DNA of 63,800 bases, the filler included, from Reclinomonas americana ATCC 50394 (lineage: Eukaryota): assembly GCA_048213135.1 (NCBI GenBank). It is 17 parts of 17 records of this genome, joined end to end, with 100 filler letters (N's around TTAATTAATTAA, not from the genome) between each part and the next. Parts side by side here need not be neighbours in the genome. Positions count along the whole stretch, not along the records: positions 35,767 to 38,751 come from AFZH01024334.1; positions 38,852 to 43,804 come from AFZH01024335.1; 15 more parts are not named here. The stretch is one strand, 5' to 3'. Every line of letters starts with the position of its first letter. Position 1 is the first letter of the stretch. The position numbers and the translations under genes were made by a program. Under the pieces are notes generated by a model. The model made no database searches. It had not been told where the DNA came from and was given only the letters and a program-made list of their open reading frames with translations. Of this stretch, positions 10,084 through 55,283 are shown in pieces.

Positions 10084-10254
10084 CGGGCGATAACTCCTTC
10101 CCATCGGAAGCAGCCACAAGAGCGACCAGGGCAATCGGTGCGCTCGTATGGCCGNNNNNNNNNNNNNNNNNNNNNNNNNNNNNNNNNNNNNNNNNNNNTT
10201 AATTAATTAANNNNNNNNNNNNNNNNNNNNNNNNNNNNNNNNNNNNNNNNNNNN

Positions 10255-22473: not shown

Positions 22474-22496
22474 TCGCCAGGTCGGCGGATGGTCGG

Positions 22497-23039
22497 CTAC
22501 GCGAGCACGCGGTAGCGCAGATGGACCTCACTCGCGAAGGCCGAGGTCTCGATGCGCTGCAGCGTCATCTGCCTGCTCAGTCCCGTGAACAGGGAGATCC
22601 CGCTACCGAGCAGGACCGGCACCACGTCAAGGACGATCTCATCGACGAGTCCCTTCTCCAGACACTGCCTCGAGATGCTGCCCCCGAGCACGCTCACCCA
22701 CTTGTCCACCGCCGCTTGCTTGGCGGCACTCACGGCTTCGACCACGTCGTCGACGACGAATTCGTAGATGATCCCGTCTCTCTCGATGGACTCGTGAGGG
22801 GTGTGCGTCATGAGGAACACCGGCACCCCCAGGATGCCGCCGTAGGGAATCTCCCCGTCTTCGATCGTCTGCGTCTTGTTCGCTCCCCCGACCACTGCGC
22901 CGATCTCCCCGACGACGCGCGAGACCACCGCCTCGTCTGCCGGATCGACCGGGAACCCGTTCATCCACTCGACTCCCCCGCTGGCATCGGCCATGAATCC
23001 GTCGAGCGACACAGTCGCGTGTATGAGTACTTTCGACAT
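22497..23039 (-). CDS. Dihydrofolate reductase-family (RibD C-terminal) protein
   Basis: 'TVSLDGFMA', 'VLGGSISRQCLEKGLVDEIVLDVVPVLLGSGISLF'; GGAGG RBS upstream. Confidence 0.88.
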   Translation of the reverse strand: MSKVLIHATVSLDGFMADASGGVEWMNGFPVDPADEAVVSRVVGEIGAVVGGANKTQTIEDGEIPYGGILGVPVFLMTHTPHESIERDGIIYEFVVDDVVEAVSAAKQAAVDKWVSVLGGSISRQCLEKGLVDEIVLDVVPVLLGSGISLFTGLSRQMTLQRIETSAFASEVHLRYRVLA

Positions 23040-23319
23040 CACTACCTCCTGGATAAGAGCCCGTGGCCCGAGAGGTGAGTCGTTCGACTCACCTTGATTG
23101 CAGGCTAGCTCTCCGCGAGTCCCGAGTCAAGCGACTCACCACTACGGCATACTTGATCCATGCCTCGTGAGCTCTCCGACTATCACCGCCAGGTCGCCGC
23201 CGACAACCGCGCGGCAATNNNNNNNNNNNNNNNNNNNNNNNNNNNNNNNNNNNNNNNNNNNNTTAATTAATTAANNNNNNNNNNNNNNNNNNNNNNNNNN
23301 NNNNNNNNNNNNNNNNNNC

Positions 23320-24604: not shown

Positions 24605-24821
24605 GGACGAGCGGTCCGCCGACCGGGCGCGGCTCGTCGGCGAGCAGAAGCCCTCCCACCTCGCTCCCGTCACCGCTCGGCGAGGCGATGCCCGCGTAGC
24701 CCGGTCCGTAGTCGACGAAGGTCCAACCGAAAGCCTCGGTGTAGAAGGCCGTGGCGGCGGCGAGGTCGGTGACGACGAGTTCGGTGTAGTCGAGGGAATG
24801 GTGCACGGGTCGAGGGGTCAT
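24605..24821 (-). CDS. VOC/glyoxalase-family protein, 3' truncated
   Basis: 'LDYTELVVTDLAAATAFYTEAFGWTFVDYGPGYAGI'. Confidence 0.85.
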
Positions 24822-24886
24822 GCGATCACCGTAGCGGTGGCTGACGACATGCGGGCGCCGACGATGTCTGACGCCTCTGGCAGGCT

Positions 24887-25438
24887 GTGAGGATGAGCTC
24901 GACCATCGCCGCCTGGAACGGCAGTCACGATCAGTTGACGCAGGCGGCAGAGCTGTACGCTGACGTCTTCTCCGAAGCGCCGTACGACGAGGAGCGTTCG
25001 CAGAGCATCGAGAGCTTCACTTCCCGCGTGCGACGCTATGCAGCCGAGAAGCCGTCGTTCCGGCTGCTCATCGCATCGGAGGGCGACCGGGTGGTCGGCC
25101 TCGTTCTCGGGACCGGCGCCTCCCGTGGCGACTGGTGGTGGGACCGCCTGGAAGCAGTTTTGCCGGCAGACGTGCAGGCGCTCTGGCTCGACCCGGAGTG
25201 CTTCTCTGTGGAGGAACTCGCCGTCGACGCCTCGCACCGCCGTCACGGGGTCGCAGCCGCGCTGATGACCACCGTCCTCGGTGAGCTTCCCTACCGCACC
25301 GCGCTTCTCTCCTGCTACCAGGAGGCGCGGTCGGCGCAGAAGCTGTACAGCGGCCTCGGCTGGACGATCATCGATCCTGCTGTCCACTTCACGGCGTCTC
25401 GCGCAGTGCAGGTGATGGGCATCCGCTTGCGCGAGTGA
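24887..25438 (+). CDS. GNAT family N-acetyltransferase
   Basis: 'VEELAVDASHRRHGVAAALM' motif A; 'AQKLYSGLGW'. Confidence 0.85.
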   Translation: MRMSSTIAAWNGSHDQLTQAAELYADVFSEAPYDEERSQSIESFTSRVRRYAAEKPSFRLLIASEGDRVVGLVLGTGASRGDWWWDRLEAVLPADVQALWLDPECFSVEELAVDASHRRHGVAAALMTTVLGELPYRTALLSCYQEARSAQKLYSGLGWTIIDPAVHFTASRAVQVMGIRLRE

Positions 25439-25480
25439 CGATGCGAAACCCGCGCCGCTGCACAGGAGTAGCGTTGAGGC

Positions 25481-26582
25481 GTGTCGCAGGTCCCCCGCTC
25501 CCCCGTCTCGACGCCGGAGTGGCGAGCATGGCTGGTCTGGTCCGTGGGTGTCGCGGCCTACGTGCTCGCGATCACGAACCGCACCTCGCTCGGCGCCGTC
25601 GGCGTCGAGGCCGCTGATCGCTTCCAGGCCGACGCGTCGACGCTCGCGCTCTTCGCCGTCGTCCAGCTCGCGGTCTACGGAGGCATGCAGATTCCGATCG
25701 GGGTGCTGCTCGACCGGTACGGATCACGCCCGATCATGACGATCGGCATGCTCCTGATGGCCGCCGGGCAGTTGACGATGGCCCTCTCCCCCAGCGTCGG
25801 TATCGCGATCGTCGCCCGCATCCTTCTGGGTGCCGGTGATGCTGCGATCTTCCCCGCCGTCCTTCGTCTCGTCGCGACCTGGTTCCCCGCGCAGCGCGGC
25901 CCGATCATGGTGCAGTTCACCGGCATCGTCGGCCAGGCGGGCCAGCTGATCGCCCTCGTCCCGCTCGCTGCTCTCCTGCATGCGACGACGTGGACCATCA
26001 CCTTCGGCAGCATCGCCGGCCTCGGCGTCCTCTTCGCGATCCTCGTCGCCCTGATCATCCGCAACCACCCGCCTGAGCGGAATGCCGACGTCACCGTGAA
26101 CACCGACACCGGAGTGATCCGCGTCGTCACGTCCGCGATCGACACCGGCGTCGGCATCCGCGCCGCATGGGCGCACCCCGGGACCCGGCTCGCCTTCTGG
26201 TCGCATTTCACCTCGCCGTTCGCCGGCACCGCGTTCATCCTCCTGTGGGGGATGCCGTTCCTGACGGCGGCTCAGGGACTCGACACCGCCCACGCTGCGG
26301 GGATCATCTCGGTCTACGTGATCGCCGGCATGGTGCTCGGCCCGGTGATCGGCGACCTCTCCCGGCGGCTGCCGAACTATCGGTCGATGGCCCTCGTCCT
26401 CCCCGCTGTCGGCATGCAGATGCTGGCCTGGATCGTCGTCATCGCGCTCCCCGGACCTGCCCCGCTGTGGCTGCTCTACGTGCTCGCCGTGGCCCTCGCA
26501 ACCGGCGGCCCCGCATCGATGATCGCGTTCGATCACGCCCGCACGCACAACCCTTCGCACCGACTGAGCACGGCGACGGGGG
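25481..26582 (+). CDS. MFS transporter, 3' truncated
   Basis: 'QIPIGVLLDRYGSRPIM' motif A; multiple TM segments. Confidence 0.88.
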
Positions 26583-28072: not shown

Positions 28073-31000
28073 TCACAAGCCCATCGCCACCGAAAGGCTG
28101 GTCGGACTCCTCTCGTCAAACGAGCGAGTCCCATCGTGATCAACCAGCTGCTCTATCCAGCTGTTGCGACCCGCACCACCGTTACTCTCACCTGCTCGTA
28201 GATCGGCCTCCAACTCATCGTCGTCAATCGTAACCATAATCGAATCCGCCTCACTCTCAGAGGAGGCCTTCTTCCCCACAGCAGCGTCGCCTCCACTGTC
28301 AAGCTCCATGATCCGTAAGTACTTCACGATCGTAGAGGAGCCAGGAGCGAAGCCAGCCACTGCCTCGGCCAACTTGCCGGAGACACCCGCAGCGCACAGC
28401 AATGTCAAGCCAGTCACTCGAAGAGAGTGACTGGCAACCAAGTCAGGGTCCATACCACCGGCTGCCGCCACAACCTTGACAACAGAGTTCGACACATTGC
28501 CCAGCACCTCCACCTTCCTCCTGCCAGGAGTAGGTGCCTGTAGAAACAGACTGAGCGTCGACACCTCGTCCTCAGGGTCCACAAATCTCGCAGCAAAGGG
28601 GCGCGACTCATTGAGGTACTTCGTCATGAGACGCACAGGGCATGTCCACTCTCCCTGCCCCCTTGCCACAACGTACCGCTGCGAGGTTGCACCCCGCTGC
28701 TGGTTCTTTCGCCACCGCAGAAACACTGTCATCTTGTCACCAGGAGACTGAAGAATCACGTCGTGCAACGTCAGCTGCAAGATGTCCGACTGGCGAAGAC
28801 ACAGCCTAACGCCGAGGAAGAACATGGTCAGGTTTCGAATAATGAGGAAGCGGCGGTGATGGGACGCAGATGGATTGAGGTACTCTGCCGCCATCACGGC
28901 CGCCGCCTTCCGAAACACCGCCGGGCGAATAGGAGCGTGCACCACTCGCTGAGTCTCCGTATTCGACCGCTCAGAGCTCGCCACCTTCCGAATGCCATTC
29001 ATGAGGGCCGCAGTGTACTCTGAGACAGGTGGGGAGCGATTGTTAAGAGCAAAAATCTTCTTCAAAGCGGCGATCGCAGAGTAACAATCGTCCACGTGGG
29101 AGTCGCGTTCAAGCGCTTCCAAAACGCAGCGTTCCACATCCGACTGCTGCCACTCCAACAGCCCGACACCGTGTCGTGCACAGTAGCCGTCCAACAAGCG
29201 CAAACCACGGTCACTCTTCAGCCGGGTGCTGGCTGCCCATCTGGCCGCCACGAGCTGCTCCTTGAGCAACTCCACCTGCTCCGGACCGTCTGCCATCGCC
29301 GAAGAGATTAAATCTCTGAGATAGCCCCGTCGACCAAGTACACGTCTACGGACCAATTCGCTCTCTCGTCCGACTTCCACTTTCGACACGGCTCTGCGAC
29401 CTCGAAGGACGGAGCTGGCAAAAAGTGCACCCCCGGTTCTCGACTCAACCGCAGCGGCTCCCCGCATTGCATCTGCCGCAAGGGAAGCCACCACTCCATT
29501 GTCGGCCAAGACGGTGCCACTATGAGTGCTCTCGCCTGTGAGTCGCGCACTACTCGAATCACGCTCGATAACAGAGCGAACGGTGCCACCACTAGGTTGA
29601 ACTCGTTCCTCCAATCGACTGCTGCCAACGCGTCCCTCCCCTTCTCCTCCAGGGTACAATACGTGGCGCATCGCGTGTTCGTGTGAGAAGCGAACCGATC
29701 GCAAGTAGGGGTCCCAAAACGCTCCGTAATCAGACTCCACGCCGAGTCCGAGAGTGTCCACTCCCCGTATTGCATCGACCGAGAGAGGCGGTCTGCCAAC
29801 CCGTTCGCCTGCGACGCCAGCCAACGTGGGTGCAGCAGGGTGATCCTCTCCTCGTATGCCAAATGCCAAATGTCTCTCGCCAGTAGCGCCAAGCCCTCGT
29901 TCGTGCTGTGACCACGCCTGAGGCAGGCCGCTGCCACTGACGAATCCGTCACGATGCGGATTGTGGCGCCCGACAGAAAACCCTTCCAATAGTCCAGAGC
30001 CATGTACACCGTGTACAATTCCAGCAGTGCGATATGCATCGACCGTCCCTGCACTGCTCCATACTTCTCTGGAATCGTACAGTCTGCCCACAAACCTTGC
30101 ATCACCATGTCGAGGAGATGAGCACCGTATCCACTCAGACTCGCGTCCGTAGTCAGCTCCCAAAACAATGGACCCGCTCGGCCCTCCTTCCCTTGTGGTG
30201 CGTGCCGAATCGGCTTCCTGTTCGAAGCACACAGCTGACGGTGGCCAAACGCCAACGCGTCCAGCTGTGCCGTTGCCAACCGTCGGAGGGAGTGGCCCTT
30301 CGGGTCGCCAATTCTGTCCCACTCCTCGTTCAGCCACTGCATAAGAGGGAGGGCCACCAGGAGCGCTGCGCGGCAACCCCTGTGAGCCCACACCAGTGTG
30401 CCCACCAACGAGGCCACCTCCGCCACCGAGACCAACTGTTCGTGTCGGCCACGCACCAAGAGACGACGACACTCCTCCGCCAGCGATGCCAGTTTGTCCG
30501 CTGGCACGCTGACGGACCATTTCCCCTGAGAAGTGTCGAAGAGAAAGCCCAAAAACCTGAACCGGCGCGACGGTTGTAGAACCGACTTGGTGGTCTCCAC
30601 ATGCACGTTCAGTAGGCGGAATAGAGACAATGTCATCCCAATCTGTCGCTCCAATGTCTCTGGCGACAAGTGAAAGAACGCCAGGTCGTCCAGGTACGAC
30701 ACCACCAACACGCCTCTGCTCCTCAAGTACTCGACGATCATTCGCACCTGCAGAGTGAATGTCGCTGGCGAGAGCGTGTGGCCAAATGGGGTGACTCTCT
30801 GAATGAAGAATCGATTGTCTACCTGAAAGCCCAGCAGGCTCGCAAACTCCTCCGCCACTGGCAAAGCGTGAAAGCCACTCTTCATGTCCATCGTGACTCC
30901 ATACATTCCACGCTCCAGCAGCAGTTCCACCACTCTGAGATCCTCCAAGCGCAGGGAACGACCCGCTGGCTTCTGCAGACCGTCGCGACGGTAAAAAGCG

Positions 31001-33829
31001 TTCAGCGACCGCAAGTCGTGGATCACTCGCCGCTTCACGCCGTCCTTCTTGGGAATTGTAAAGAGGGGAGAGAGCCACTGAGGGGTATGCTCCACCTCCT
31101 GGGCCACCCCATCTGCCAACCACTGCGGGAGCTCCTTCTCCAAATAAACTCTGTCCTCCACAGAGAGCGCCCGAGGAACCGTCAAGTGAAACGGCTGACG
31201 GGCCGGTAACTGGTGCATGGGCAGAATGGTCACGCCAAATCGCGACCAACTCGCCGGCCGTGCATAACGCGCCTTCAGCGCCGTTCCCACTCGCCGCACC
31301 TCGTGCCCAGTCAGCTGCAGAGAATCCACTTGACCACTCCCAACCGACAGCACTTGCGCCATAGTCTGCCAGGCGAGCGTTCCCCTCAAGAATGCTCCAG
31401 CCACCGCTTGTCGGTTGGGGAAGTGGCGCAACAGTTCCGGCGCTCCCTCCCACAGGAGCGACAGACGCTGAATTCCGAAAAAACTGACAGATTTCGCCAG
31501 TGTACTCCTCCACCGAGGAATAGTGGGGAGGGATCGCCTCCAGCGGCCAACTGGCGCCGGAGTGCTCCCCTCCCCTGGGCAGCGGGATCAACGGTTTAGA
31601 GATTGGGTGAAAAGGAAGGAGAGATGGTGGATACCCCAAGCCCACTGACGTATCTCTTCTCCCACTTCCTCCCGCTGCGCCTGCCGTGGCGAGGGGGTGA
31701 GGAGGTGGAGGCGGCGGCGGCGGCGGCTGCGGCTGCGGTGCTGGTGTAGCCGCACCGGCTGCGGCAAGCCCGAAACCCGGCCAGCTGGGGGGAGGCGTCT
31801 CCGACTCCGCTACCGGTTGTAGCTGGCCCGCCATGGGCTGCAAGGGCTCAAACCACTGCTCTAGGTCCAAATCCAGCCCGTGCCACGCGAGCTCGTCAAC
31901 CGCACCCCCACTTTGGGCTGAAATGAAGGTGTTGGATGGGAGCAAGTAGGCAGAGCCCGATGCGTTCATTTGCGTCACGCCGCTGGCCTGCGTCGCTGCC
32001 GTTGGTGCCGCTTGGCCGCCCGCTCCGTTGCCGCCATAAGGGCCGCGGTGGCCTCTCGACCGCCCACGGCCTCGGCCACCTCCACCACCGCCACCACGGA
32101 AGCCGCCAGTAGCACCACCGCCGGTCTGCGACGCCGCTCCACGGCCCCCCGTGGCCGACGTCGTCGCCGCCGGGCGGTTCTGGTATGAGCCATAACGGCC
32201 CCGTTTCGCCTTGAACGGCGCCTGCTTGCGCGTCTCCGACTCGAGCGTGCCGAGCGCCACCTTGGCGGCGCGTTTAGCCAACTTCATCGACAGCTCGCCC
32301 ATAGCCGTCTCCAGCAGGTCCCTCTGCGCGCGTCGAGCCATCTCCACCCAGCTGAAGGCGTTGACCGCCGTCCTCAGCCCGGCCCGGTAATCTCGCGTCT
32401 TCTGAAGGAACAGCGCCTCGATCAACTTGCCCCCGAATTCGACCTGCGTCTCCAAGTCATCGTCGCCGAATTGCTCCTGTGCCTTCGCCACCGACCACCA
32501 CGGTTGAGCGGCCACTGCCTCGGCAAAGGCCGGGAAGCGCGACCTCAGGTACGTGCCCAGAATGGAGTCAAGGTTGTCGCAGGTGGCATCCAGATACTTG
32601 CGCCCCGCTGGACTGAGCGTATTGGCCAAAGTCCCATACTGCCAGATCTCTGACGGCGCGGAAAAGAGGGCCGCCGTCGCGTCAGCCACGAAGTCCGTAG
32701 CGGCGGTGCTTGCTGCCAGCTGGATCTTCTCCATCCGCCCCTCTCGGCTGTGCTGGTGGGGGCGGGTGTGCGGTGTAGCAGTCATACCGTTCGAGGCGTA
32801 GATGATCGTATTGGCCTCGTCGACGATGCCGCGCAGGGCCTCGCGAAGTGCCTCACGAACGGCTCCCTGGTGCGCAAGGTGGGCGACTTGCAGGATGTTG
32901 ACCTGGCCGTAGCCGGGCTGCGGAATCAAGGCCGCTGGGAAGGCGTGCTGAGCCATGTCGGCTTCGAATGCTGCTCGGTCGGGGGCGAAAGCGCCCCGCT
33001 CCCGCTCCCCTTCCATGAGCGGCATCTCCTGGTCGTCTCCCAAGAGCCGGTCGGCGGCCGGTGCTGCCCCCGGTGGAGCCGCCGGCGGCACAGGCCCGAC
33101 TGGCGCCGGTGCAGGGGCCACGGGGTCAGCCGGTGCCGGAGCAGCGGGTGCAGCCGGTGCCGGAGCCGCAGGCGCAGCCGGCGCGGGGAGACGCTCGTCG
33201 AGCAAGGTGCTGATGTCGGTGTACAGCCTGCCGAAGTCCGACTTCAAGCCAACTAGGCGGGACTCCACCGAAGACACGCGTGCGTCCAGCACCTGCGCCT
33301 GCCTCGACAGGGCTGCGTCAAACTCAGTGCGCAGCCTCATTTCCGCCTCCTCCGTCTGGCGCCTCCACTCCTCCTTCGCGTTGTTGAAGACCTCCACGAC
33401 CATGGGGACCGTGACGGGCACGGTGGAGGAGAAGTTGGTGGTGGTAGTGGTGCCGCTGCTGCTGCCGCCCGAGCCACGAGAGGGGGCAGCAGAGGGGCCT
33501 GTTGCGGCCTGCTGTTGCTGCTGGCCGCGAGTAGAACGCGAACCCGTACCCCCGACGGGAGGGGCCGGAGGAGGAGGAGGGGGAGGAGGCGGAGCTGCCG
33601 CGGAGTGGGAAAAACTCGGGGCAGCGGCGACTTCGACAACTGCAGAAAAAAGTGACGTTAGTTCACTCGCGGAAAAATATAGGGTAGATTCTATTCCCCC
33701 GATACATGCTACAATGCAACAACCCAGCACGTATCCCGCGAAGAACCACATCGAGAATGCAGTTTCGAGAAGAAATGCTATCGCCTCCGCTACAAAACGA
33801 GGAAGAGAGGAGAAGAGACCGAGTGACAC
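28073..33829 (-). CDS. Continuous Gag-like + tyrosine recombinase ORF (up to 1918 aa)
   Basis: N-terminal coiled-coil, Pro-rich and RG-rich Gag-like region. C-terminal YR motifs: LCLRQSDI (R), WRKNQQRG (K), SHSLRVTG (HxxR), GFAPGSSTIVKY (Y). Confidence 0.8.
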   Translation of the reverse strand: MSLGLFSSLPRFVAEAIAFLLETAFSMWFFAGYVLGCCIVACIGGIESTLYFSASELTSLFSAVVEVAAAPSFSHSAAAPPPPPPPPPAPPVGGTGSRSTRGQQQQQAATGPSAAPSRGSGGSSSGTTTTTNFSSTVPVTVPMVVEVFNNAKEEWRRQTEEAEMRLRTEFDAALSRQAQVLDARVSSVESRLVGLKSDFGRLYTDISTLLDERLPAPAAPAAPAPAAPAAPAPADPVAPAPAPVGPVPPAAPPGAAPAADRLLGDDQEMPLMEGERERGAFAPDRAAFEADMAQHAFPAALIPQPGYGQVNILQVAHLAHQGAVREALREALRGIVDEANTIIYASNGMTATPHTRPHQHSREGRMEKIQLAASTAATDFVADATAALFSAPSEIWQYGTLANTLSPAGRKYLDATCDNLDSILGTYLRSRFPAFAEAVAAQPWWSVAKAQEQFGDDDLETQVEFGGKLIEALFLQKTRDYRAGLRTAVNAFSWVEMARRAQRDLLETAMGELSMKLAKRAAKVALGTLESETRKQAPFKAKRGRYGSYQNRPAATTSATGGRGAASQTGGGATGGFRGGGGGGGRGRGRSRGHRGPYGGNGAGGQAAPTAATQASGVTQMNASGSAYLLPSNTFISAQSGGAVDELAWHGLDLDLEQWFEPLQPMAGQLQPVAESETPPPSWPGFGLAAAGAATPAPQPQPPPPPPPPPHPLATAGAAGGSGRRDTSVGLGYPPSLLPFHPISKPLIPLPRGGEHSGASWPLEAIPPHYSSVEEYTGEICQFFRNSASVAPVGGSAGTVAPLPQPTSGGWSILEGNARLADYGASAVGWEWSSGFSAADWARGAASGNGAEGALCTAGELVAIWRDHSAHAPVTGPSAVSLDGSSGALCGGQSLFGEGAPAVVGRWGGPGGGAYPSVALSPLYNSQEGRREAASDPRLAVAERFLPSRRSAEASGSFPALGGSQSGGTAAGAWNVWSHDGHEEWLSRFASGGGVCEPAGLSGRQSILHSESHPIWPHALASDIHSAGANDRRVLEEQRRVGGVVPGRPGVLSLVARDIGATDWDDIVSIPPTERACGDHQVGSTTVAPVQVFGLSLRHFSGEMVRQRASGQTGIAGGGVSSSLGAWPTRTVGLGGGGGLVGGHTGVGSQGLPRSAPGGPPSYAVAERGVGQNWRPEGPLPPTVGNGTAGRVGVWPPSAVCFEQEADSARTTREGGPSGSIVLGADYGRESEWIRCSSPRHGDARFVGRLYDSREVWSSAGTVDAYRTAGIVHGVHGSGLLEGFSVGRHNPHRDGFVSGSGLPQAWSQHERGLGATGERHLAFGIRGEDHPAAPTLAGVAGERVGRPPLSVDAIRGVDTLGLGVESDYGAFWDPYLRSVRFSHEHAMRHVLYPGGEGEGRVGSSRLEERVQPSGGTVRSVIERDSSSARLTGESTHSGTVLADNGVVASLAADAMRGAAAVESRTGGALFASSVLRGRRAVSKVEVGRESELVRRRVLGRRGYLRDLISSAMADGPEQVELLKEQLVAARWAASTRLKSDRGLRLLDGYCARHGVGLLEWQQSDVERCVLEALERDSHVDDCYSAIAALKKIFALNNRSPPVSEYTAALMNGIRKVASSERSNTETQRVVHAPIRPAVFRKAAAVMAAEYLNPSASHHRRFLIIRNLTMFFLGVRLCLRQSDILQLTLHDVILQSPGDKMTVFLRWRKNQQRGATSQRYVVARGQGEWTCPVRLMTKYLNESRPFAARFVDPEDEVSTLSLFLQAPTPGRRKVEVLGNVSNSVVKVVAAAGGMDPDLVASHSLRVTGLTLLCAAGVSGKLAEAVAGFAPGSSTIVKYLRIMELDSGGDAAVGKKASSESEADSIMVTIDDDELEADLRAGESNGGAGRNSWIEQLVDHDGTRSFDERSPTSLSVAMGL
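29308..31587 (-). CDS. Reverse transcriptase / RNase H / DAM-like methyltransferase ORF nested in an alternative frame
   Basis: RT: DMKSGFH, PFGHTLSP, YLDD. RNase H: TDASLSGYGA, HIALLEL, TDS, NGLADRLSR. MTase-like: DRFASHTN...DAL..W...VAPF...PSWP. The frame is open upstream to a TGA at about 31590. Confidence 0.93.
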   Translation of the reverse strand, partial: SRCPGEGSTPAPVGRWRRSLPTIPRWRSTLAKSVSFFGIQRLSLLWEGAPELLRHFPNRQAVAGAFLRGTLAWQTMAQVLSVGSGQVDSLQLTGHEVRRVGTALKARYARPASWSRFGVTILPMHQLPARQPFHLTVPRALSVEDRVYLEKELPQWLADGVAQEVEHTPQWLSPLFTIPKKDGVKRRVIHDLRSLNAFYRRDGLQKPAGRSLRLEDLRVVELLLERGMYGVTMDMKSGFHALPVAEEFASLLGFQVDNRFFIQRVTPFGHTLSPATFTLQVRMIVEYLRSRGVLVVSYLDDLAFFHLSPETLERQIGMTLSLFRLLNVHVETTKSVLQPSRRFRFLGFLFDTSQGKWSVSVPADKLASLAEECRRLLVRGRHEQLVSVAEVASLVGTLVWAHRGCRAALLVALPLMQWLNEEWDRIGDPKGHSLRRLATAQLDALAFGHRQLCASNRKPIRHAPQGKEGRAGPLFWELTTDASLSGYGAHLLDMVMQGLWADCTIPEKYGAVQGRSMHIALLELYTVYMALDYWKGFLSGATIRIVTDSSVAAACLRRGHSTNEGLALLARDIWHLAYEERITLLHPRWLASQANGLADRLSRSMQYGEWTLSDSAWSLITERFGTPTCDRFASHTNTRCATYCTLEEKGRDALAAVDWRNEFNLVVAPFALLSSVIRVVRDSQARALIVAPSWPTMEWWLPLRQMQCGEPLRLSREPGVHFLPAPSFEVAEPCRKWKSDERANWSVDVYLVDGAISEI

Positions 33830-34320
33830 TCTTCACGGAGATGCTCTCGTGAGACACTTCTCGCACTCGGAGCGCATCCCCCCCACCGAGCAAAAAAAAA
33901 TGTTCGGCAGATATGGTGGCTACATGACTCCGACAGTCGGACGGTACGCGCTCGAGTGCGAGAAAGGTGTCAACACGAGCGTGACGCAGAAGGGAAAGGA
34001 GTACAGAAGTGGCTGTAGCGGGGCTCAGAAAGCGCAAGAGTGGGAGCACCGCTTCTCCCACACGGGCTGTGTAAACACGAGGCCCCTGCGCACTGAGGCT
34101 AGCTGCAAGACACTGCACGTGTGCCACTGCGACCCACTCCTCTCACCTTCCTCGTCACCAGACGGCATCGAAGAAGAAGCGACAAACTCGAAAGAATTCT
34201 CCATACAAAAGTGCGGAAAGGCGAAGAAGGTACTTGGCAGCGCTCAACGACAAAGAAATTCTCGTGGTGTGCGCAAAATCGGAGAAGGAATCAATGGCGG
34301 CGAACAAAGGCTCGGCGCCG

Positions 34321-34785: not shown

Positions 34786-35940
34786 CCGGTCATCGCCCGC
34801 AGTGGTGACGATTCACTCCCCCCTGATGCACACCAAGAAGCGACGCACAAGTGACACAGTCGTTGTACACCCGAGCCACAACCAGCCTCTCGTGTTCTCC
34901 CACAGGAGAGAGACACTCCGACGCTCACATTGCAATCGCGTGCCCGGGGTAGGGGTGCGCAGAAGGAATGGCGACGGGAGGTGGTGTGGTGGGTGTGTGC
35001 GGTGAGTGGGACGCCCCCTGTGTGTGCGTGTAACCCACAAGACCCTTGACGCGCTCAGACATCAAGAGTCGACTCGGGGGAGGGCGTCACCCCCTAGAAT
35101 GCCATACACCGCTGACCGAGAGCGTCCAGTGGTTGCCCCCTGAACGCCATCGGTGCCTGTCCAGCGGCAGGCCAATAAATAGTGGCACGCAACTCCCGTG
35201 AGACTTGGTGTACACCCGGCAGTGCCACCAACGAACCCACGAGAGCGGCTGGGAACGCAGACAAGCAGGAACCCAGCAGGCCGAGTGGTGCCCCCCGGGC
35301 TTCCCAAGCTCAAATACGTAGCACATGGACCACTCACGCCCGGGTACGCAACACACATAGCGCCCACCACAACAGAGACCGCTGCTGCCAAGAGCCAAAG
35401 TGTGTGGAAAGGAAAGGAGAGGGAACCCAAGAGAATCGGTTGAAAGAGCACACGGAGCCGCTCCCTCCACAAAGACACAGGCACCAAGCTCTGTGTGTGC
35501 AAGCCAACTGGTGTGGGCGGGGACGCCATAGGCCACCCTCCCACGCAGAGAGGCGACTCAAGTGTGCGCGGTGCAGAGCGAATCCAACCGATCATTCCCC
35601 TCCTCTTTCACCCTCCCACAAACATGTATGTGTGTGTGTGTGGAGCGCGTAACGCGATGCCACACGNNNNNNNNNNNNNNNNNNNNNNNNNNNNNNNNNN
35701 NNNNNNNNNNTTAATTAATTAANNNNNNNNNNNNNNNNNNNNNNNNNNNNNNNNNNNNNNNNNNNNGGCCGTGTACTTCGATATCACAATTGTCTTTCAT
35801 CATGCACACAGCACGGTCTCCATTATCGAAGAGCACATGAGAAAGCAGAGTACGCGAGGTATCAAGAGCAGTAAGGACCACCTTAAGCTCTTCGTCCTTG
35901 ACTAAAAGTACGCGGGATTTTGTGTTGTGTTGGACGAGAA

Positions 35941-38515
35941 ATGCGCGCTGCTCTCTTCTTCGTGCTTCTGCTGGCCACGGTGGCCTGTGCCTCGGCCACT
36001 GGCGCTCACTGGGCCGTGATTGTCGCCGGCAGCAAGGGATACGACAACTATGTGCGCACACACCCTCTCACACACACACATGCACATGCTCTTTGTCTCA
36101 CACGCTCTCACGCAGCGCCATCAAAGCGACATTTACCACGCGTATCAGATGCTGCATGGTGTGTGTATGTGAGAACGAGTGCAAAATAGAAGCACACACA
36201 CTCTCTCACACACACGTTTTCTCACAGCCAATGGCATTCCCGACTCCAACATGTTACGATCTCGTCACCTTATTGTTTGTTCTCTCATGACACTGACATG
36301 CCATGCAACAACAACAATCACAGCATTGTGTTCCACTATGATGACATTGCCGACAGCATCGACAATCCGCACAAGGGCACTGTGATCAACTGTTGCGTGT
36401 GAGCTCACTGTGCTTTCCTGCTTCACAACGTGCCCACCGACCCCCGTGCGCGTATGCGTGTGTGTGTGCATGCAGATCCTGGAGTTTCGCATGCTTGCAC
36501 AGTTGTGGCCTCGTTGTCTGCGATGCTTGTCTCACACTGTGATGGTGCAGGGTCCGAACGAGTACCCAGGTGTGCCGAAGGATTACACGAAGCACCTGGT
36601 GTCGCCGGAGAACTTTATGAAAGTGCTGACGGTGAGCCAACTTCCCGTTCTTTTCTTCCGTCTTTCGTGTCTGCTTTGCTTACGCATTCCGTCCGGTGCA
36701 GGGCCAAGTTCCGTCGGGCGGCACTGGCAAGACGTTGAAGGTGCTGTTCATCTTCTCCTCCCCCTTCTTCGTCGTGTGTGCGTGTGTGCCAATGTCTCCT
36801 CCCTGCAGTCGGGCCCGAATGATCGTGTGACGATTTACTTTGCGGACCACGGCGCTCCGGGCCTGGTGGCGTTCCCCGGCACGTTTTTCCACTCGCAGGT
36901 GCTGACGGTGGAGCAGCTGATCAAGACGCTGAACACTATGCACCAGCAGCAGATGTACAGCCAGCTGGTCATCTACGTGGAGGCGTGCGAGAGTGGCTCG
37001 ATGTTTGCCGGTCAGACGCTGCCGCCCAACGTCTACGCTGTCACGGCCGCCGATCCGGACGAGAGCGTTGCGTGCGCTTGTGCACAAGTGATGTGATGTG
37101 AGCGTCGCACTCTGTTGCTCACCCTCGGGACACTGCAGAGCTACGCCTGCGATTACGACTCCAAGTTCCATGTGCGTGCCGTGCTTTGTCGTTGTGTGTC
37201 GTGTTCGTTTCTCATTTGTTTGCCATGCACGCGCACAGACGTACCTGAATGTGAGTCGTCGGCCCTGCTCATCTCGCCCACACGTCTCTCCTTCGCTTAC
37301 ATACTCCTCGCTCCCCAGGACTGCTTCTCCATTGACTTCCTGCTGAACACCGAGAAGGAGGTGTCGGACTCGACGTACACGCTGCAAGAGCAGTTTGTGG
37401 CCGTGCGTGCCAACACCACCGAGTCGCACGTGTGCCAGGTGCGTCAAAAGTCACATTCCTTTTCGTGCATGTCTTCACTTTGCTGAATGCGCGTGTGTGC
37501 GTCACAGTATGGAGACTCGTCGATGGCCAGGTGCGCGTTTTCATGCCATGTGCACCCCCCCCTCCCCCCCCCCACCCCCTCGTTATTTATCCACTCAGCA
37601 AACAATTTTTCCGTCATCGCACAGCTTGCCCATCAGCGACTTCTTCTCCAACGCGCCGTTCTCGCGCGCACACCGCGCTGGTGAGCATGTGTATGTGAAC
37701 CCGATTTGCTTCTCGCACAATTCTCACCTATTCCCTCTCTCTCTCTCTCGCTTCCAGCGCGCCGACGGGCCACCCGCACGCCGCCTGCCAATGCTCGCGA
37801 GGCTGCTCGTCGCGCCCCTGTGCCGTCGTGGGTATGTCTGTGTGTTTGACGACCAAATCAAAATGCCTTGCGTGTATATATTTCTCACGACCATTCTCGC
37901 AGGATGTGGAGCTGAAGCGCCACCAGTTCATGTATGAGGATGCGACGTCTGAGGAGGAGCGAGTTTCGCTGTTCTCCACTCTGCGCAGCGCGCATCGTGC
38001 TTTTTTTTATCTGAATACCCTCTGTGGGGCTGATGCAGTTGGTGATTGGCGCACGCCTGGCGGTCATCGAGGAGCACCGCCGTCGCGTAGACCTCACGTT
38101 TGGCATGCTGGCGGTCGATCTGTTCGGCATCGAGGGCGCCAAGGCGCTCGACCAGCGTCGTGCTGGCGACGACGTGTGCACCACGTTGCGTAAAGGATTG
38201 TTGTGCTGGGTGCACACACCTCATGCCTCATAATATGTCTCCGCCATGCAGCTCCACTCCGGTGGACACCAACTGCATGCTGTCGGCGATGAAGATGCTG
38301 GACAGCGCCTGCCCGGGCGACGACAGCCTCATGGACAACACCTACGGCTTCAAGTACGCTCGCTTCCTGCGCCAAGGTGAAGGAACACAACTGAGTCGCA
38401 GTGTTACTATTCGTTCATCACCTCCTCACAAGTGTCTTTTGTGGCAGCATGCGCGGCTGGCTTCTCCGCGGCGCACATTGCGCAGACGGCGGCTCAGCGT
38501 TGCCAGCGTCAGTGA
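35941..38515 (+). CDS. LGMN: Legumain / asparaginyl endopeptidase (peptidase C13); multi-exon
   Basis: Signal peptide; HWAVIVAGSKGYDNYRHQSD; GVPKDYT; catalytic DHG and EACESGS; ESSYAC; SHVCQYGD. Confidence 0.92.
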
Positions 38516-38636
38516 AACGCCCGCACGTGCCATTGTTGTTCTTTCTCTCTTTTTCCCCGCCTTCTCATCCCTCCCTTAGCTGGTGAATGAAGACCTCTCG
38601 AGAGCTCGCTGGCTGACCTTGGCAGATCAGTTCTTT

Positions 38637-38718
38637 GCCTATCACGCACGAGATGTGGGTTCGACTCCCGCCCGGGGTAACTTCCTGATACCCCGGTGGT
38701 GTAACGGTTAGCACACGT
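38637..38718 (+). tRNA. Circularly permuted tRNA gene (3' half 38637-38679, 5' half 38690-38718), anticodon ATC; Asp- or Val-like body
   Basis: Reassembled ACCCCGG TG GTGT AACGGTTA GCAC A CGT|GC CTATCAC GCACG AGAT GTGGG TTCGACT CCCGC CCGGGGT A folds into a complete cloverleaf. The flanks are mutually complementary. Confidence 0.85.
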
Positions 38719-38922
38719 TTCCTTCTGATCGCCGCACTTCAGCCGCAGCGANNNNNNNNNNNNNNNNNNNNNNNNNNNNNNNNNNNNNNNNNNNNTTAAT
38801 TAATTAANNNNNNNNNNNNNNNNNNNNNNNNNNNNNNNNNNNNNNNNNNNNTCGACCATAGGGCACACTCGCCTCCAGGTCGACGCACTCGACACCGGTC
38901 ACCCACCTCCAAGGCACCCTCA

Positions 38923-43802: not shown

Positions 43803-43912
43803 CGNNNNNNNNNNNNNNNNNNNNNNNNNNNNNNNNNNNNNNNNNNNNTTAATTAATTAANNNNNNNNNNNNNNNNNNNNNNNNNNNNNNNNNNNNNNNN
43901 NNNNGTCATTGC

Positions 43913-45250
43913 TCATCGCCTGCCCTCGAGCACGGCCCAGAGCTCCATTTCGAGATCGGGCCAGTCACCGGAGAAATGCATGCCGATCGAACTTGCCGTG
44001 CTGAACTCCGGCCAGAGCGGCGAGGTGCGGTCGAGATAGAAATAGACGTGGTCGGTCAGCGCCCGGATCTGGGGCGGCGGCGTCGGCAGGTGGACGAGAT
44101 TGATGCCCGGCAGATGGGCATGGACGATCTCGTTCATCTTGGTGTTGGGGCCGATCTTGAACAGATGCGGGAACTGCGACTGGATCTCGGTGAGGGGCCG
44201 GCGCGCCGCCACCTCCAGGACCAGGGTCGCATTGCGCATCAAGGCGCGGTCGCGGATCGTCGACATGAAGGCGTTCTGCGCCCGCTCGACGATCTCCAGC
44301 CGGATGGCGCGACGGCCGAGCTGGGCCGAGAGGAAGTCCTGGATGTCGCGCACCACCGGGGTGAAGCAACCCTCCAGGTCGTCATGGTCATAGGCCGGAT
44401 AGTCGCGGGCGCGGCGCTCGGCGGTGGTGAAGGTCGCAAGCTCGCCGGCAATGGCGAGCAGCGTGACGAACAGGCGCTCCGGGTGGACGAAGCGCGAGCC
44501 GCGCATGTGCTTGAGAACCGGGATGTGCCGGTTGAGCAATTGCAGGATGAAATAGTCGGCGCTCTGCAGGCCGCCGCCGGCGGTCGGGTCGGCGGCGTAG
44601 CGGGCGAGCTCCTCCAGCTTGTTGTCGATCCAGCCGATGACGCGGTCCATCCAGCCGTCGACCACCGGATGGGCTGAGCAGAGCAGCACGGGCGGCGCGA
44701 ACTTCTCGTCGAACAGGATGGCGCGGTCGCGCACTTCGAGGATGCGCCCGAGCGCCAGGCCGACATAGCCGGGCTTGCTCGTCTTGCGCAGCTCCAGGCC
44801 GAAGCGCGGATGGGCGATATCGATCTCCTCGTCGACGCGCAGCGAGGCGGTCGAGTCGATCAGCATCTCGGTCGCCGGATAGAAGCGGCTGGCCGAGCCG
44901 TTCAGGCTGTCCTCGACCTCGCGGGTATTGGAGGCGGCGAGCGGCAGCGACAGCCAGGCGATCTGGCCGGCGGCGTTCTCCGGCACCTCGATGGCGGGCG
45001 GCAAAGGCGAATTGTCCGGCATGGCGAAGGGCGTGCCGTCCGGCATCACGCCGACGGCGCGCCGCAATCCGATGCGGCTCTGCTGGGCCAGGTCGCGGTC
45101 GATCTCGAGCACCGAGAACCCCCACGGATAGGGCGTGACGTGCCGGACGCGATTCTCCAGCAGGTTCTCGAGATAGCGATCGTTCTGCTGCAGATGATGC
45201 GGCCGCAGGAACAAGCCTTCGGACCAGACGACCTTACTGTACCACGACAT
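43913..45250 (-). CDS. tssK: Type VI secretion baseplate subunit TssK (ImpJ/VasE)
   Basis: MSWYSKVVWSEGLFLRPHHLQQNDRY...YPWGF; HPERLF; YDHDDL; FKIGP. The stop overlaps an ATG (MSND...), probably the start of tssL. Confidence 0.95.
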   Translation of the reverse strand: MSWYSKVVWSEGLFLRPHHLQQNDRYLENLLENRVRHVTPYPWGFSVLEIDRDLAQQSRIGLRRAVGVMPDGTPFAMPDNSPLPPAIEVPENAAGQIAWLSLPLAASNTREVEDSLNGSASRFYPATEMLIDSTASLRVDEEIDIAHPRFGLELRKTSKPGYVGLALGRILEVRDRAILFDEKFAPPVLLCSAHPVVDGWMDRVIGWIDNKLEELARYAADPTAGGGLQSADYFILQLLNRHIPVLKHMRGSRFVHPERLFVTLLAIAGELATFTTAERRARDYPAYDHDDLEGCFTPVVRDIQDFLSAQLGRRAIRLEIVERAQNAFMSTIRDRALMRNATLVLEVAARRPLTEIQSQFPHLFKIGPNTKMNEIVHAHLPGINLVHLPTPPPQIRALTDHVYFYLDRTSPLWPEFSTASSIGMHFSGDWPDLEMELWAVLEGRR

Positions 45251-45449
45251 CCGGTTCTCGCTATCTCAAGGCCTATCCAGAACACTATACGGCTCGTTCC
45301 CGAGCGTCACCATTGCAATGTCATCGCTGCTTCCACCATTGCTGGCTTCAGGGCGGATTTCGCCACGCGCTGCGAAATCATCGCAAGCGGGCGCAGATGG
45401 TTGTAGCGTGAGACGCAGCCGACGGGCCGTCGCCTATTGGGGCAGCAGG

Positions 45450-45805
45450 ATGAACCAGAACCAGGTGCCAGATTACGATCGCAGCGGTCGGTTCCCGATC
45501 GACGAGGATGGCTGGCAGGTCGTCGATCTCAACCGGATGCTCTATCCGGGCGGCCCGCATGCCCTGCGGGTTCATGCGCCGGGGTTTCCGGCATTCCATT
45601 TCGGCTGGCGGTTCTCGACGAGCAACCCGGCTCCGACCGACAACCGCATCGTCGCCTCGCATATCGGGGCCAAGCTCGGCGGATCGCCATTGCCGCGGGT
45701 GAGCTTCACCCCGGCCGTTCTCGCGCGGATCCAGGAGCGTCTGCGCATCTACGCCATGCTCCACCCGGTGCCGCTGTTCGGAGAGAGGATCACCGGCGTC
45801 GATTT
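45450..45805 (+). CDS. Hypothetical protein divergent from tssK, 3' truncated
   Basis: ORF with high GC3 codon usage; no recognised motif. Confidence 0.55.
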
Positions 45806-45989
45806 NNNNNNNNNNNNNNNNNNNNNNNNNNNNNNNNNNNNNNNNNNNNTTAATTAATTAANNNNNNNNNNNNNNNNNNNNNNNNNNNNNNNNNNNNNNN
45901 NNNNNGCGCCGCCTTCGACGAGACGCCGCGCGAGATCGAGCCGCGCTCCATCGTCACGGCGTTGAATGCGCTGGTGAACTGAAGGCTGC

Positions 45990-46898
45990 TCAGCGCCGCG
46001 CTCCCGGTGGTGCCGTGGCGACGATCAGCCCGGCTGCGACGATCACCGCGATCCCCGCCCAAGTCATCGGCGAGGGCAGGTCGCCGAACAGGGCAAAGCC
46101 GAGCGCGGTGGCGCCGATCAGCTCGAGATAGACCAGGGGCGAGAGCGTCCCGACCGACGCGAGGCGGAAGGCGCTGATCGTCATCAGATTGCTGAGCGTC
46201 GAGACGAGGCCCATCAGCAGAATGAGCAGCAGGCCCTCACGCGTCGGCATGGTCCATTGCAGTACGGCGAAGGGCATCAGCATCAGGATGCCGAGCACGA
46301 GCTGGATCGTCAGGGTTGAAACCGGCGATCTGCCCTGCGCTGTCGCCCGCGTCAGTACCAGATAGCAGGCCATGCAGAAGCCAGAGGCGAGCGCGATCAA
46401 CGTGTCGGCGCTGGTCTCGGTCCCGGGGCGCACGACGAGGATCGCGCCGACGAACCCCAAGACCACCGCCGAGAGCTTCCGGCGATCTAGCCGCTCGCGC
46501 AGCGCGATTGCGGCAAGCAAGGTCGCTGCGATCGGGGCGATAAAATAGGCGCCGAGCGCATCGGCCAGCGGGATGCGCGCGATCGCCACGAAATAGAGCG
46601 TCATCGCCGCGACCAGGAAAGCGGTGCGCACGACCTGGGCAAGCCAGTATCGGGCACGCGACGCCGGAGCGTGCGCCGGCTCCGGTGCTCGCCCGCGCTG
46701 GATCAGGGCCACCGGCAGGATGAAACCGAGCGCCGCGATATAGCGCACCCAGCTGAGGAAGGCCGGGGAGTGGGCGCCGCTGAGATATTTGGCGATGGCG
46801 TCGGAGCTCGGGATGATCAGCATCGCCGTCGCCATGAGCAGCAGGCCGATTGCTTCGTCGCGCCGTTTGGAATGCGCTTGATCGGGAAAAGGAGACAT
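45990..46898 (-). CDS. DMT/EamA family transporter
   Basis: About 10 TM segments; 'DAIAKYL', 'LRERL', 'GAILVVRPG', 'LSPLVYLELI..LFGDLP'. Confidence 0.9.
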   Translation of the reverse strand: MSPFPDQAHSKRRDEAIGLLLMATAMLIIPSSDAIAKYLSGAHSPAFLSWVRYIAALGFILPVALIQRGRAPEPAHAPASRARYWLAQVVRTAFLVAAMTLYFVAIARIPLADALGAYFIAPIAATLLAAIALRERLDRRKLSAVVLGFVGAILVVRPGTETSADTLIALASGFCMACYLVLTRATAQGRSPVSTLTIQLVLGILMLMPFAVLQWTMPTREGLLLILLMGLVSTLSNLMTISAFRLASVGTLSPLVYLELIGATALGFALFGDLPSPMTWAGIAVIVAAGLIVATAPPGARR

Positions 46899-47022
46899 GT
46901 CGCGACCCTATCTGATTCCGTGTGGCCGGCGGCGTTCCCGTAAACGCGTCTGCAGCGTCGGCAAATGCGCGTTAACCGCGCCCAGCATCTTCCGATCCGC
47001 GCTGACGTTGCGATATTGACGT

Positions 47023-47058
47023 GAACAAGAAGGGAACTAAATTGAACATATAGAGAAC
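47023..47058 (+). promoter_or_regulatory. Two tandem alphaproteobacterial LexA (SOS) boxes, GAAC-N7-GAAC
   Basis: GAACaagaaggGAAC (47023-47037) and GAACatatagaGAAC (47044-47058), between TTGACG (-35-like) and an AAGGAG RBS. Confidence 0.8.
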
Positions 47059-47072
47059 AAAGGAGATGGGTC

Positions 47073-47133
47073 ATGGTGATCGCCCGCAAGCTGATGGCCG
47101 GAGCCGTGGAATTCCTGGCGCTCGCTCTCTTCG
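47073..47133 (+). CDS. Start of a hydrophobic SOS-box-controlled ORF (MVIARKLMAGAVEFLALALF...), truncated
   Basis: An RBS followed by ATG directly downstream of the LexA boxes. Confidence 0.5.
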
Positions 47134-54087: not shown

Positions 54088-55283
54088 TCAGTACAAGCGA
54101 TCGGTGGTGACGCAGCAGCCGAGGGCGTGCAGTTGCGCCTTGCGGGCGGCGTCGTTGACGGTCCACACGTTGCAGCCGGTGGGCCGCACAGCCAGCGCAC
54201 CCTTCACCAGTGTGTCACGGTCCTGCACGCCCAGCATGGAGACGCCGATGAAGTCCGGCAACCACGACGTGCAGCACCACACGTACACACGATCGACCAC
54301 ACGCGACATCCACTGCGGTGTGTACGCCAGCGGGCCCAGCGACTCGGGCTCCTCCAAAATCGCGTCCGTCAGCGTGTTTTCGGCCACCAACAGCATGGTA
54401 CGCAGCGACGGATCGCGTCTCCGCAAGCAGTATAGCAGCACAGGCGAGAAGCTGAGCACGATCACACGCGCGCGGAACTCGGCCGTCTGCCGACTCAGAT
54501 AGTCGACAAAATATCTCGCGGTGGCGCGAGGCGACAGCAGGTCCTTGATCTCCAAAAAGAGATACGACTGCGTGGCGGCCGCACCGACATCCGGCACCGC
54601 ACCCGTCAGCAGCGCCACCACCTCGTCCAGAGTCGGAACCGCCATGGACATGACGGCTGGCGTGAGGTGCGGATGCGCTGCGTGCACCGTCTGTGCGTCG
54701 GGAGTGACGACGTAGGGTCGGCCACTCTCGGCCAGCGAGTACTCGGTCACCTCCTTGTCGATGCCCGTGGTGCGCTTCAAACTGCGCGTGACAACAACGA
54801 AAGGGGAACAAGTGAGTGCGAGCGGGCGAGCGCGCATCGGGCTATTGGCAGGCGAGACGAAACTTGAAGTCGTGATGCACCAACGGCACTCCGTCGGCTG
54901 TGATGTGCACATCAATCTCCACCGCGTGCACACCAACACCCGAGTCGGCCGGGTCAGTTGCGCGACTCGTGTTGTTGTTGTTGTCAGTGGCCGCACAGTT
55001 GAGACTGCTGCGCATCAGCGCATGCGCCAACGCAGGGATCGTGTTCTCCGGCAGTGTAGCTGTGCGTCCGCCACTGCAAGACACAACAAGCTCAAATCAG
55101 CCGACTGCTGCACATCCGGGCCATGACGACGATCGAGAGCGACAAAACACAAACACATGGCGAGAGAGAGAGAGAGAGAGAGAGGTGATACACGCGCATG
55201 GAGTGCGGAAGGAGAGACGGAAGAGTGTGGAGGTGCGAAATGGCGATTGCAATTGCAAGTGATGCAGTTCCGCACGGGATCAT
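54088..55283 (-). CDS. Glycerophosphodiester phosphodiesterase (GDPD family); 5' end uncertain
   Basis: PENTIPAL, VEIDVHITADGVPLVHHD, LKRTT, PTLDEV, FLEIK, VIVLSF, VWTVND, TTDR. Confidence 0.88.

Follow-up and report, generated by a model that had tools for sequence, protein, structure and literature searches.

The stretch of DNA considered here, hereafter the window, comprises 63,800 bases from the assembly of Reclinomonas americana ATCC 50394 (GCA_048213135.1), in which 17 contigs of 1.1–9.1 kb are joined by 16 identical linkers (44 N + TTAATTAATTAA + 44 N), so that a feature touching a linker lies at a contig end and has no genomic neighbourhood there. One of these contigs (AFZH01024334.1, at 35767–38751; 2,985 nt), of eukaryotic type, carries an intron-split legumain gene and, as its final 146 nt, the element that is the subject of this analysis: a transfer RNA (tRNA)-shaped sequence in circularly permuted order, bordered by a leader and a trailer that pair with one another (Table 1). 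The contig ends with base 38751, and the linker follows directly. The permuted cloverleaf is a real feature of this DNA, far beyond what chance would provide, and the arrangement of its parts is as an initial annotation of the window had described it, with the tRNA's 3' half placed before the 5' half and a 10-nt spacer between them.

Table 1. Parts of the permuted element, the gene upstream of it and the bacterial-looking contigs, in window positions.
Feature	Position	Strand	Basis
Leader strand of closing duplex	38604..38630	+	cofold/duplexfold; whole-element minimum free energy (MFE) structure
Pyrimidine linker UUCUUU, unpaired	38631..38636	+	sequence; cofold
tRNA positions 30–73	38637..38679	+	ARAGORN on circularised/joined sequence; position table; T-arm motif scan
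10-nt spacer ACUUCCUGAU, closing the acceptor stem as a hairpin	38680..38689	+	sequence; ARAGORN
tRNA positions 1–29	38690..38718	+	ARAGORN; position table
Pyrimidine linker UUCCUU, unpaired	38719..38724	+	sequence; cofold
Trailer strand of closing duplex, paired to 38749	38725..38751	+	cofold
Legumain (Peptidase_C13), intron-split	35965..38512	+	Pfam; tblastn; legumain profile
Bacterial-looking contig	8430–10154
Bacterial-looking contig	19465–20603
Bacterial-looking contig	20704–23218
Bacterial-looking contig	24605–26582
Bacterial-looking contig	43905–45805
Bacterial-looking contig	45906–47133

Read from its beginning, the first part of the element supplies the top of the anticodon stem, the loop CUAUCAC with its anticodon AUC, the anticodon stem's 3' strand, a 4-nt variable region (AGAU), a T arm containing a perfect B-box-like GGTTCGACTCC, the acceptor stem's 3' strand and the discriminator A; the second part supplies the 5' acceptor strand, U8, a D arm (G18G19 included), A26 and the three bases that begin the anticodon stem. 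Presented with the window in linear form, ARAGORN called no tRNA and Rfam returned no match at gathering thresholds. When 38637–38718 was circularised, or the 5' and 3' parts were joined computationally, ARAGORN returned a 72-nt cloverleaf with the anticodon AUC, all of whose stems are free of mismatches (acceptor 7 bp, D 4 bp, anticodon 5 bp, T 5 bp), and the MFE structure of the rejoined 72-mer is exactly this cloverleaf (−29.7 kcal/mol), in agreement with the 7-bp acceptor stem, D stem, 5-bp anticodon stem and T arm first proposed. The tertiary and consensus bases are all in place: U8, A14, A15:U48, G18G19, U33, A37 (a purine), G53:C61, U54U55C56 and A58. As a control for chance, each N-free 82-mer of the window (n = 60,822) was circularised and passed through ARAGORN. 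Calls were made in 39, every one of which starts within 38616–38654 and so overlaps the element, and the other 60,783 gave none; ARAGORN is lenient on D arms, and the 39 calls are mutually dependent and amount to one signal. The strict T-arm motif in the first part of the element is likewise the only one in the window. A custom scan of the window for permuted tRNAs gave five rows, two of them past a loose D-loop filter, the second being a GC-rich spot (32963/33055) with a T stem of four pairs out of five and no ARAGORN call. The further T-arm-before-D-arm genes for which the initial annotation had proposed a search did not materialise in the window, where none was called besides the candidate.

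The position of the break was sought by enumerating junctions, with the 5' piece allowed to run on into the trailer and the 3' piece to reach back into the leader, and all joins yielding a 17-nt anticodon arm considered. Fifteen joins gave at least four of the five stem pairs, and only 28/29 and 29/30, which are equivalent, gave five Watson–Crick pairs together with U33 and a purine at position 37; both produce the anticodon AUC, and the break therefore falls inside the anticodon stem, where it had been placed originally. Joins at 34/35 to 36/37 take the anticodon UUC (Glu) from the trailer, but with a U.C mismatch, a G.U pair and C33. This variant (38719–38725 with 38642–38650) was called by ARAGORN on circularised windows starting at 38642–38649, and would suit the Glu-like body of the element at the price of C33 and the U.C stem mismatch.

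All documented permuted tRNA genes rely for maturation on a bulge–helix–bulge (BHB) motif and on the tRNA-splicing endonuclease, the BHB geometry tested here being a central helix of 4 bp with 3-nt bulges and cuts after the second bulge base. Neither a strict nor a relaxed BHB was found at the junction, where two of four pairs form in the central helix for 29/30 and one of four for 28/29, the outer helices having 0 and 1 bp. Between the leader and trailer strands, no register offered a BHB-like arrangement that yields a product of tRNA length (72 nt). The earlier failure to build such a motif was accordingly reproduced, with at most two of four central pairs in place. Junctions listed in Table 1 of PMC3978253 lie at 15/16, 20/21, 37/38, 50/51 and 59/60, and a break at 28/29 or 29/30 would for that reason be a new junction position relative to the published set. 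No permuted tRNA with a junction in the anticodon stem, or without a BHB, was met in the literature searched, within which Figure S1 of PMC12633428, outside the accessible text, may list junction types.

Outside the tRNA body, the two flanks pair with each other as had been claimed, forming 21 bp in blocks of 3, 2, 6, 4 and 6 bp with bulges between them (−30.1 kcal/mol by cofold/duplexfold), and the same pairing recurs in the MFE structure of the whole element. Dinucleotide shuffles gave a mean of −16.7 kcal/mol (standard deviation 3.2) and equalled the stability of the duplex in 1 of 2000 cases. The possibility that the flanks are decayed halves of tandem gene copies was tried and found unsupported, as they have no likeness to the missing halves beyond that of shuffles: leader against 5' part scored 9.0, matched or beaten by 689 of 2000 shuffles, and trailer against 3' part scored 11.0, matched or beaten by 1,584 of 2000, leaving only a 7-nt pseudo-acceptor. 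Flanks that pair with themselves and have no evident tRNA descent follow the pattern of functional permuted genes. The pseudo-acceptor is a leader heptamer, ACCUUGG (38616–38622), capable of pairing with CCGGGGU of the 3' acceptor strand (38672–38678), two G.U pairs included, in rivalry with the true 5' strand; among random host 33-mers, 3,839 of 100,080 (3.8%) contain a heptamer capable of pairing with that 3' strand. At permissive settings, Rfam aligned 38616–38679 as a linear tRNA devoid of a D arm, with ACCUUGG as its 5' acceptor strand (20.9 bits, gathering threshold 29). The heptamer could descend from a first copy of the gene since lost, belong to an alternative fold or be a product of chance. 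It may also be observed that the trailer begins with UUCCUUCUGAUC (38719–38730), which has a CUUC..CUGAU pattern in common with the spacer ACUUCCUGAU, and that leader GAUCAG might pair with the CUGAU of either, which would permit an alternative fold.

The anticodon AUC puts A34 in a two-codon box. Eukaryotes convert A34 to inosine by deamination and employ it only where every codon read specifies one amino acid, as in four-codon-type boxes. In the GAN box, AUC would read Asp and Glu codons alike, and we know of no decoding system that uses A34 in the Asp/Glu split box; the anticodon does not suit a decoding role. The body is un-Asp-like: the element has an A73 discriminator and a G10–C25 pair, whereas G73 and G10.U25 are identity marks of tRNA-Asp. 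It carries U11–A24, U13.G22, A46 and a 4-nt variable region, which are features of tRNA-Glu, and a single base separates its loop from the Glu (UUC) loop and likewise from the Asp (GUC) loop. Ordinary bacterial tRNA-Glu(UUC) and tRNA-Gln(UUG) genes at four metagenome loci, one of which (L003) was examined by ARAGORN alone, carry an identical D-arm 22-mer. With regard to transcription signals, the B-box-like T arm precedes the A-box-like D arm, an order common to all permuted genes; the element contains no T-run of four or more (the longest being three), and a scan for bacterial promoters and terminators found none. Most permuted genes on record carry, upstream, a TATA-like or AT-rich element and, downstream, a T-stretch (PMC3978253, section 5). 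The new permutation class put forward in the initial annotation has fared unevenly: the junction position does fall off the published list, but the AUC anticodon, A73, the want of a TATA-like or AT-rich element upstream and the want of a T-run inside the element, whose downstream side falls beyond the contig end, all speak against a working tRNA, and the functional claim of a working tRNA gene is not established.

Upstream of the element lies the legumain gene, recognised by a Peptidase_C13 match (PF01650, 123 bits) and by tblastn, which placed legumain in at least six small exons within 35965–37459 with GT..AG introns; among the 120 matches listed, a legumain exon reaches at most 61% identity. 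A legumain profile was built from 112 of 120 fetched legumains, the eight outside 400–500 aa being left out, and gave weak colinear matches of the C-terminal prodomain to 38414–38509 (best independent E-value (iE) 0.0078), which Pfam did not confirm. If these weak matches are right, the legumain stop would lie near 38512 and the element about 95 nt downstream on the same strand, with a pyrimidine tract in between whose final AG is at 38579. The element could be transcribed within the legumain 3' region. The element was also considered as a coding exon and rejected as such, the open frame at 38580–38708 being unlike the legumain profile (best iE 4.4).

The window as a whole is a mixture. Ten of its 17 contigs look eukaryotic, with a GC content of 0.53–0.60, genes split by GT..AG introns and frequent (CA)n or (CT)n ends, and six of the remaining seven (Table 1) bear bacterial genes or uninterrupted bacterial-style reading frames at a GC content of 0.54–0.69; the contig at 23319–24504 has a GC content of 0.66. 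Encoded on the bacterial-looking contigs are a Gate-domain membrane protein, a methyltransferase, a weakly matching AAA/ABC ATPase, two MFS transporters and an EamA transporter, together with the type VI secretion system protein VasE/TssK (467 bits), and these contigs probably entered the assembly as contaminants or from bacteria in co-culture. The GC content of the element itself, 0.59, falls within the range of host-type contigs (0.53–0.60), as against 0.64–0.69 for bacterial contigs with one bacterial-looking exception at 0.54. Several gene fragments were noted elsewhere. The contig at 26683–35666 holds an RVT_1 reverse-transcriptase open reading frame of a retroelement (29308–31584, minus strand, 66.7 bits), overlapped in a different frame by an open frame of 1,919 aa (28073–33832) that has no Pfam match; a neighbouring eukaryotic contig carries an intron-split fragment of a phospholipase B-like gene (17359–18912, minus strand). 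Fragments were also seen of an NFACT/NEMF RNA-binding domain (5395–6195, minus strand), some 68–75% identical to plant proteins and algal proteins alike, of a GDPD phosphodiesterase (54088–55011, minus strand) and of a right-handed beta-helix repeat protein (55415–57304, plus strand). For a 227-aa exon on another contig, neither a Pfam family nor a homologue was found. Among the proteins searched, this intron-rich eukaryotic host has no close relative, and nothing in them bears for or against the flagellated protist of the initial annotation.

Taken together, these observations incline us, tentatively and with rather less than even confidence, towards a genuine permuted gene for a tRNA-shaped RNA clamped by a stem, whose product would more probably be a non-decoding look-alike, in two pieces or closed, than a standard tRNA. 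On such a reading the DNA would encode, or would recently have encoded, a structured RNA of at least ~146 nt containing a whole tRNA body in circularly permuted order, with the acceptor stem closed by the 10-nt loop and the ends of the RNA leaving as a 21-bp stalk through the break in the anticodon stem's 5' strand. The transcript might arise by read-through from legumain or from an unrecognised promoter, and would be expected to take the form of an L-shaped tRNA module carried by a stalk. Given an acceptor stem of 7 bp with a discriminator, RNase P and tRNase Z might excise the spacer and CCA might then be added, by analogy with what is reported for the 7-bp-stem YrlA of Mycobacterium smegmatis. 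Since there is no BHB, and hence no site for the splicing endonuclease, the two pieces would most likely be held by base pairing alone, as a two-piece or nicked RNA, unless the RNA simply stays closed. An A34 on an un-Asp-like body would make the product more probably a tRNA look-alike, serving as a decoy for a protein or enzyme or as a stability or processing module, than a reader of codons. A more specific proposition, which we consider unlikely, is that the sequence represents a back-to-front tRNA of a eukaryotic nucleus in which a long terminal stem replaces the BHB, the product being either a two-piece or stem-clamped look-alike or a tRNA made by cutting and joining, independently of the splicing endonuclease, at a junction within the anticodon stem.

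It is worth noting that a considerable number of results weigh against this stem-clamped gene. Equally stable pairs of the same geometry occurred in 309 of 32,606 samples from the eukaryotic contigs of the window, 294 of the 309 in register, a figure inflated by simple repeats and by overlapping sampling; the duplex is real, yet about a 1% event on a repeat-rich background, and so notable without being proof of design. The fold consisting of stalk plus cloverleaf has −50.3 kcal/mol, 9 above the rod-like MFE structure of the whole element (−59.4 kcal/mol); an energy gap of this kind is common among unmodified tRNA sequences, and lends the fold no positive support. Folding of the whole element is only mildly better than that of shuffles (z −2.29, 4 of 200). 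The 60 nt upstream are 48% AT and lack a TATA, with no recognisable promoter, and on its 3' side the element is severed by the contig end. As regards kinship with Y-type RNAs, the Ro60 motif GNCGAA(N0-1)G is missing, none of the 73 matches to GNCGAAG in the window falling within 38300–38751 and the leader having no CGAA, and Rfam gave no match to Y_RNA at E-values up to 10. A complete 5-bp stem with a 7-nt anticodon loop would not be expected of a pure mimic, and YrlA is without one (10.1101/312249). As regards relatives, the permuted pattern had no exact match in the metagenome contigs and one irrelevant match, in Streptomyces, among the prokaryote genomes, and blastn against phage records returned no match, although these scans are weak evidence, the collections being poor in eukaryotes and the pattern requiring an exact match. 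The Streptomyces locus (L005, 1501–1556, minus strand) holds a look-alike of a T arm and 3' acceptor strand between the stop codon of a gene and a GC-rich hairpin, where ARAGORN called no tRNA; it looks like the remnant of a tRNA 3' end, for example an old integration scar. A tRNA-derived SINE or repeat would be dispersed in many copies; within the 63.8-kb window, no second copy of any part of the element was found, nothing exceeding 15 nt. At present, then, the element stands as a single unreplicated locus, placed where a contig ends and bearing a suspicious anticodon: a good candidate and no established discovery.

The main competitor, unlikely in our judgement though a substantial one, is a dead relic: either a young rearrangement or a recently disabled permuted gene, whose flanks pair by chance or as a leftover. 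Such a relic might possibly have originated by partial tandem duplication, by re-insertion of a one-unit circle, or from a permuted tRNA-Glu or tRNA-Asp disabled by a change at position 34, and its case gains from AUC lying one base from both the UUC and the GUC loops and from a D arm shared with tRNA-Glu and tRNA-Gln genes. The joint absence of BHB, TATA-like element and, within the element, T-run also counts in its favour, as does a single copy with no relatives found in the window or the scanned collections, and the rarity of the duplex is only ~1%. To this may be added the leader heptamer, which takes the place of the 5' acceptor strand in the linear tRNA of 20.9 bits at 38616–38679 and might be a vestige of a first copy, and the scale of the survey, ~250,000 windows, in which rare accidents are bound to surface. 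Against a relic, all four stems and the tertiary bases are intact and the flanks have no significant likeness to the missing halves; were the outer halves alone to have decayed, selection must have acted on the inner ones, if only until recently. That two independent breaks should fall at one tRNA position, coupled with complementary flanks, would moreover be an unlikely accident. With the flanks related by pairing only, a simple young duplication is the harder version to argue, and a recently disabled permuted gene a possible one. That the element is an artefact or chimera formed where a contig ends, the assembly being fragmented and contaminated, is in our view highly improbable. The element is indeed the terminal 146 nt of a 2,985-nt contig, the window mixes eukaryotic contigs with clearly bacterial ones (VasE, MFS, EamA), and both tRNA parts are akin to high-GC bacterial tRNA sequences. 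A mis-join, however, would require two breaks at one tRNA position and would not give imperfectly complementary flanks, and a fold-back would be a perfect palindrome, whereas the duplex is one of 21 bp with bulges. The leader is also continuous with a eukaryote-style pyrimidine tract downstream of legumain, and a GC content of 0.59 fits the host contigs (0.53–0.60) and not the bacterial 0.64–0.69, one bacterial-looking contig at 0.54 aside.

The element might also be a functional gene for a decoding tRNA and represent a new permutation class at 28/29 or 29/30, which we hold to be rather improbable. Maturation would then proceed by cuts in the linkers and BHB-independent circularisation, after which RNase P and tRNase Z would open the acceptor stem. 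A perfect cloverleaf, a 7-bp acceptor stem, a spacer in the known range and flanks that unite both ends are all as such a gene would have them, and processing without a BHB is thinkable in a eukaryote, given the Guillardia nucleomorph's ectopic tRNA introns (PMC3978253, section 8). Set against this, no BHB exists in any register that gives a 72-nt product, and the joins that give UUC cost a U.C mismatch and C33. In the Asp/Glu split box, A34 would either misread or serve no purpose. A73 and G10–C25 are unfit for tRNA-Asp identity, and a Glu-like body with AUC would be unfit for the glutamyl-tRNA synthetase. Documented permuted genes are all of BHB type and mostly furnished with a TATA-like element and a T-stretch (PMC3978253); the sequence upstream of the element is 48% AT with no TATA.

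Circularly permuted tRNA genes are described from Cyanidioschyzon merolae, Ostreococcus, Micromonas, the Bigelowiella nucleomorph and Thermofilum pendens (PMC3978253), with Auxenochlorella now among the lineages that possess them (PMC12633428), and every permuted gene documented in PMC3978253 has a BHB-type junction. The element resembles them in placing the 3' part before the 5' part, with an acceptor-stem spacer of 10 nt where 1–74 nt are known (PMC3978253), and in having paired flanks that draw the junction ends together, normal consensus bases once rejoined and no encoded CCA. It departs from them in its junction within the anticodon stem (28/29 or 29/30) with neither strict nor relaxed BHB, in the 6-nt pyrimidine linkers between the junction and the 21-bp duplex, and in an AUC anticodon that is unusable by normal rules and no TATA-like upstream element. 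Long complementary flanks also unite the separately encoded parts of the split tRNAs of Nanoarchaeum equitans, which unlike the element lie at separate loci and are BHB-joined, and many ectopic tRNA introns of the Guillardia nucleomorph resemble it in having no defined BHB, although they interrupt genes of ordinary order (both PMC3978253, section 8).

In overall shape the element also resembles YrlA, a Y RNA-like tRNA mimic of Ro60/Rsr particles found in bacteria and phages (RF02553; PMC4201824; 10.1101/312249), which its authors liken to circularly permuted tRNAs (10.1101/312249). The YrlA of M. smegmatis, with a 7-bp acceptor stem, is cleaved by RNase P and receives CCA (PMC4201824; 10.1101/312249), and a tRNA-like domain is reported as not apparent in metazoan Y RNAs (PMC4201824). 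At permissive settings, Rfam aligned 38652–38714 (T arm, acceptor hairpin and D arm) with positions 28–81 of RF02553, at 20.5 bits against a gathering threshold of 69. Both molecules follow the order T arm, loop-closed acceptor stem, D arm; in both a stem formed by the RNA's own ends exits at the position of the anticodon stem; and the 7-bp acceptor stem is common to the element and to the M. smegmatis YrlA. The D-stem sequence of the element, in contrast, departs from the near-invariant one of YrlA, and the element lies on a eukaryotic nuclear contig with legumain only and no rsr gene. A partial match to YrlA is to be expected of any permuted tRNA and so speaks to the shape of the element and not to its family; membership of the YrlA or Y RNA families was rejected on the score of 20.5 bits against 69, the missing Ro60 motif, the complete anticodon arm and the eukaryotic context. 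To our knowledge, tRNA-shaped Y-type RNAs occur only in bacteria and phages.

A precedent for maturation free of a BHB is offered by the two-piece transfer-messenger RNA (tmRNA) made from a permuted ssrA gene, from which the loop closing the acceptor stem is excised and whose pieces stay base-paired without ligation. The gene permutation is credited to Keiler et al. 2000 in PMC3978253. Like it, the element combines a permuted gene with an acceptor stem closed by a loop; unlike it, the element has C3–G70 in place of G3:U70, no tag reading frame, and full D and anticodon arms. That it is itself a tmRNA was rejected, neither ARAGORN nor Rfam reporting one and the C3–G70 pair being as stated. Should the element be expressed, it would either add a BHB-free route of maturation or extend permuted tRNA mimicry to eukaryotes, and would provide a concrete case for the origin of permuted genes. 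It would then stand as the first variant of a permuted tRNA without a BHB, or as the first eukaryotic analogue of YrlA-type mimicry or of the two-piece tmRNA.

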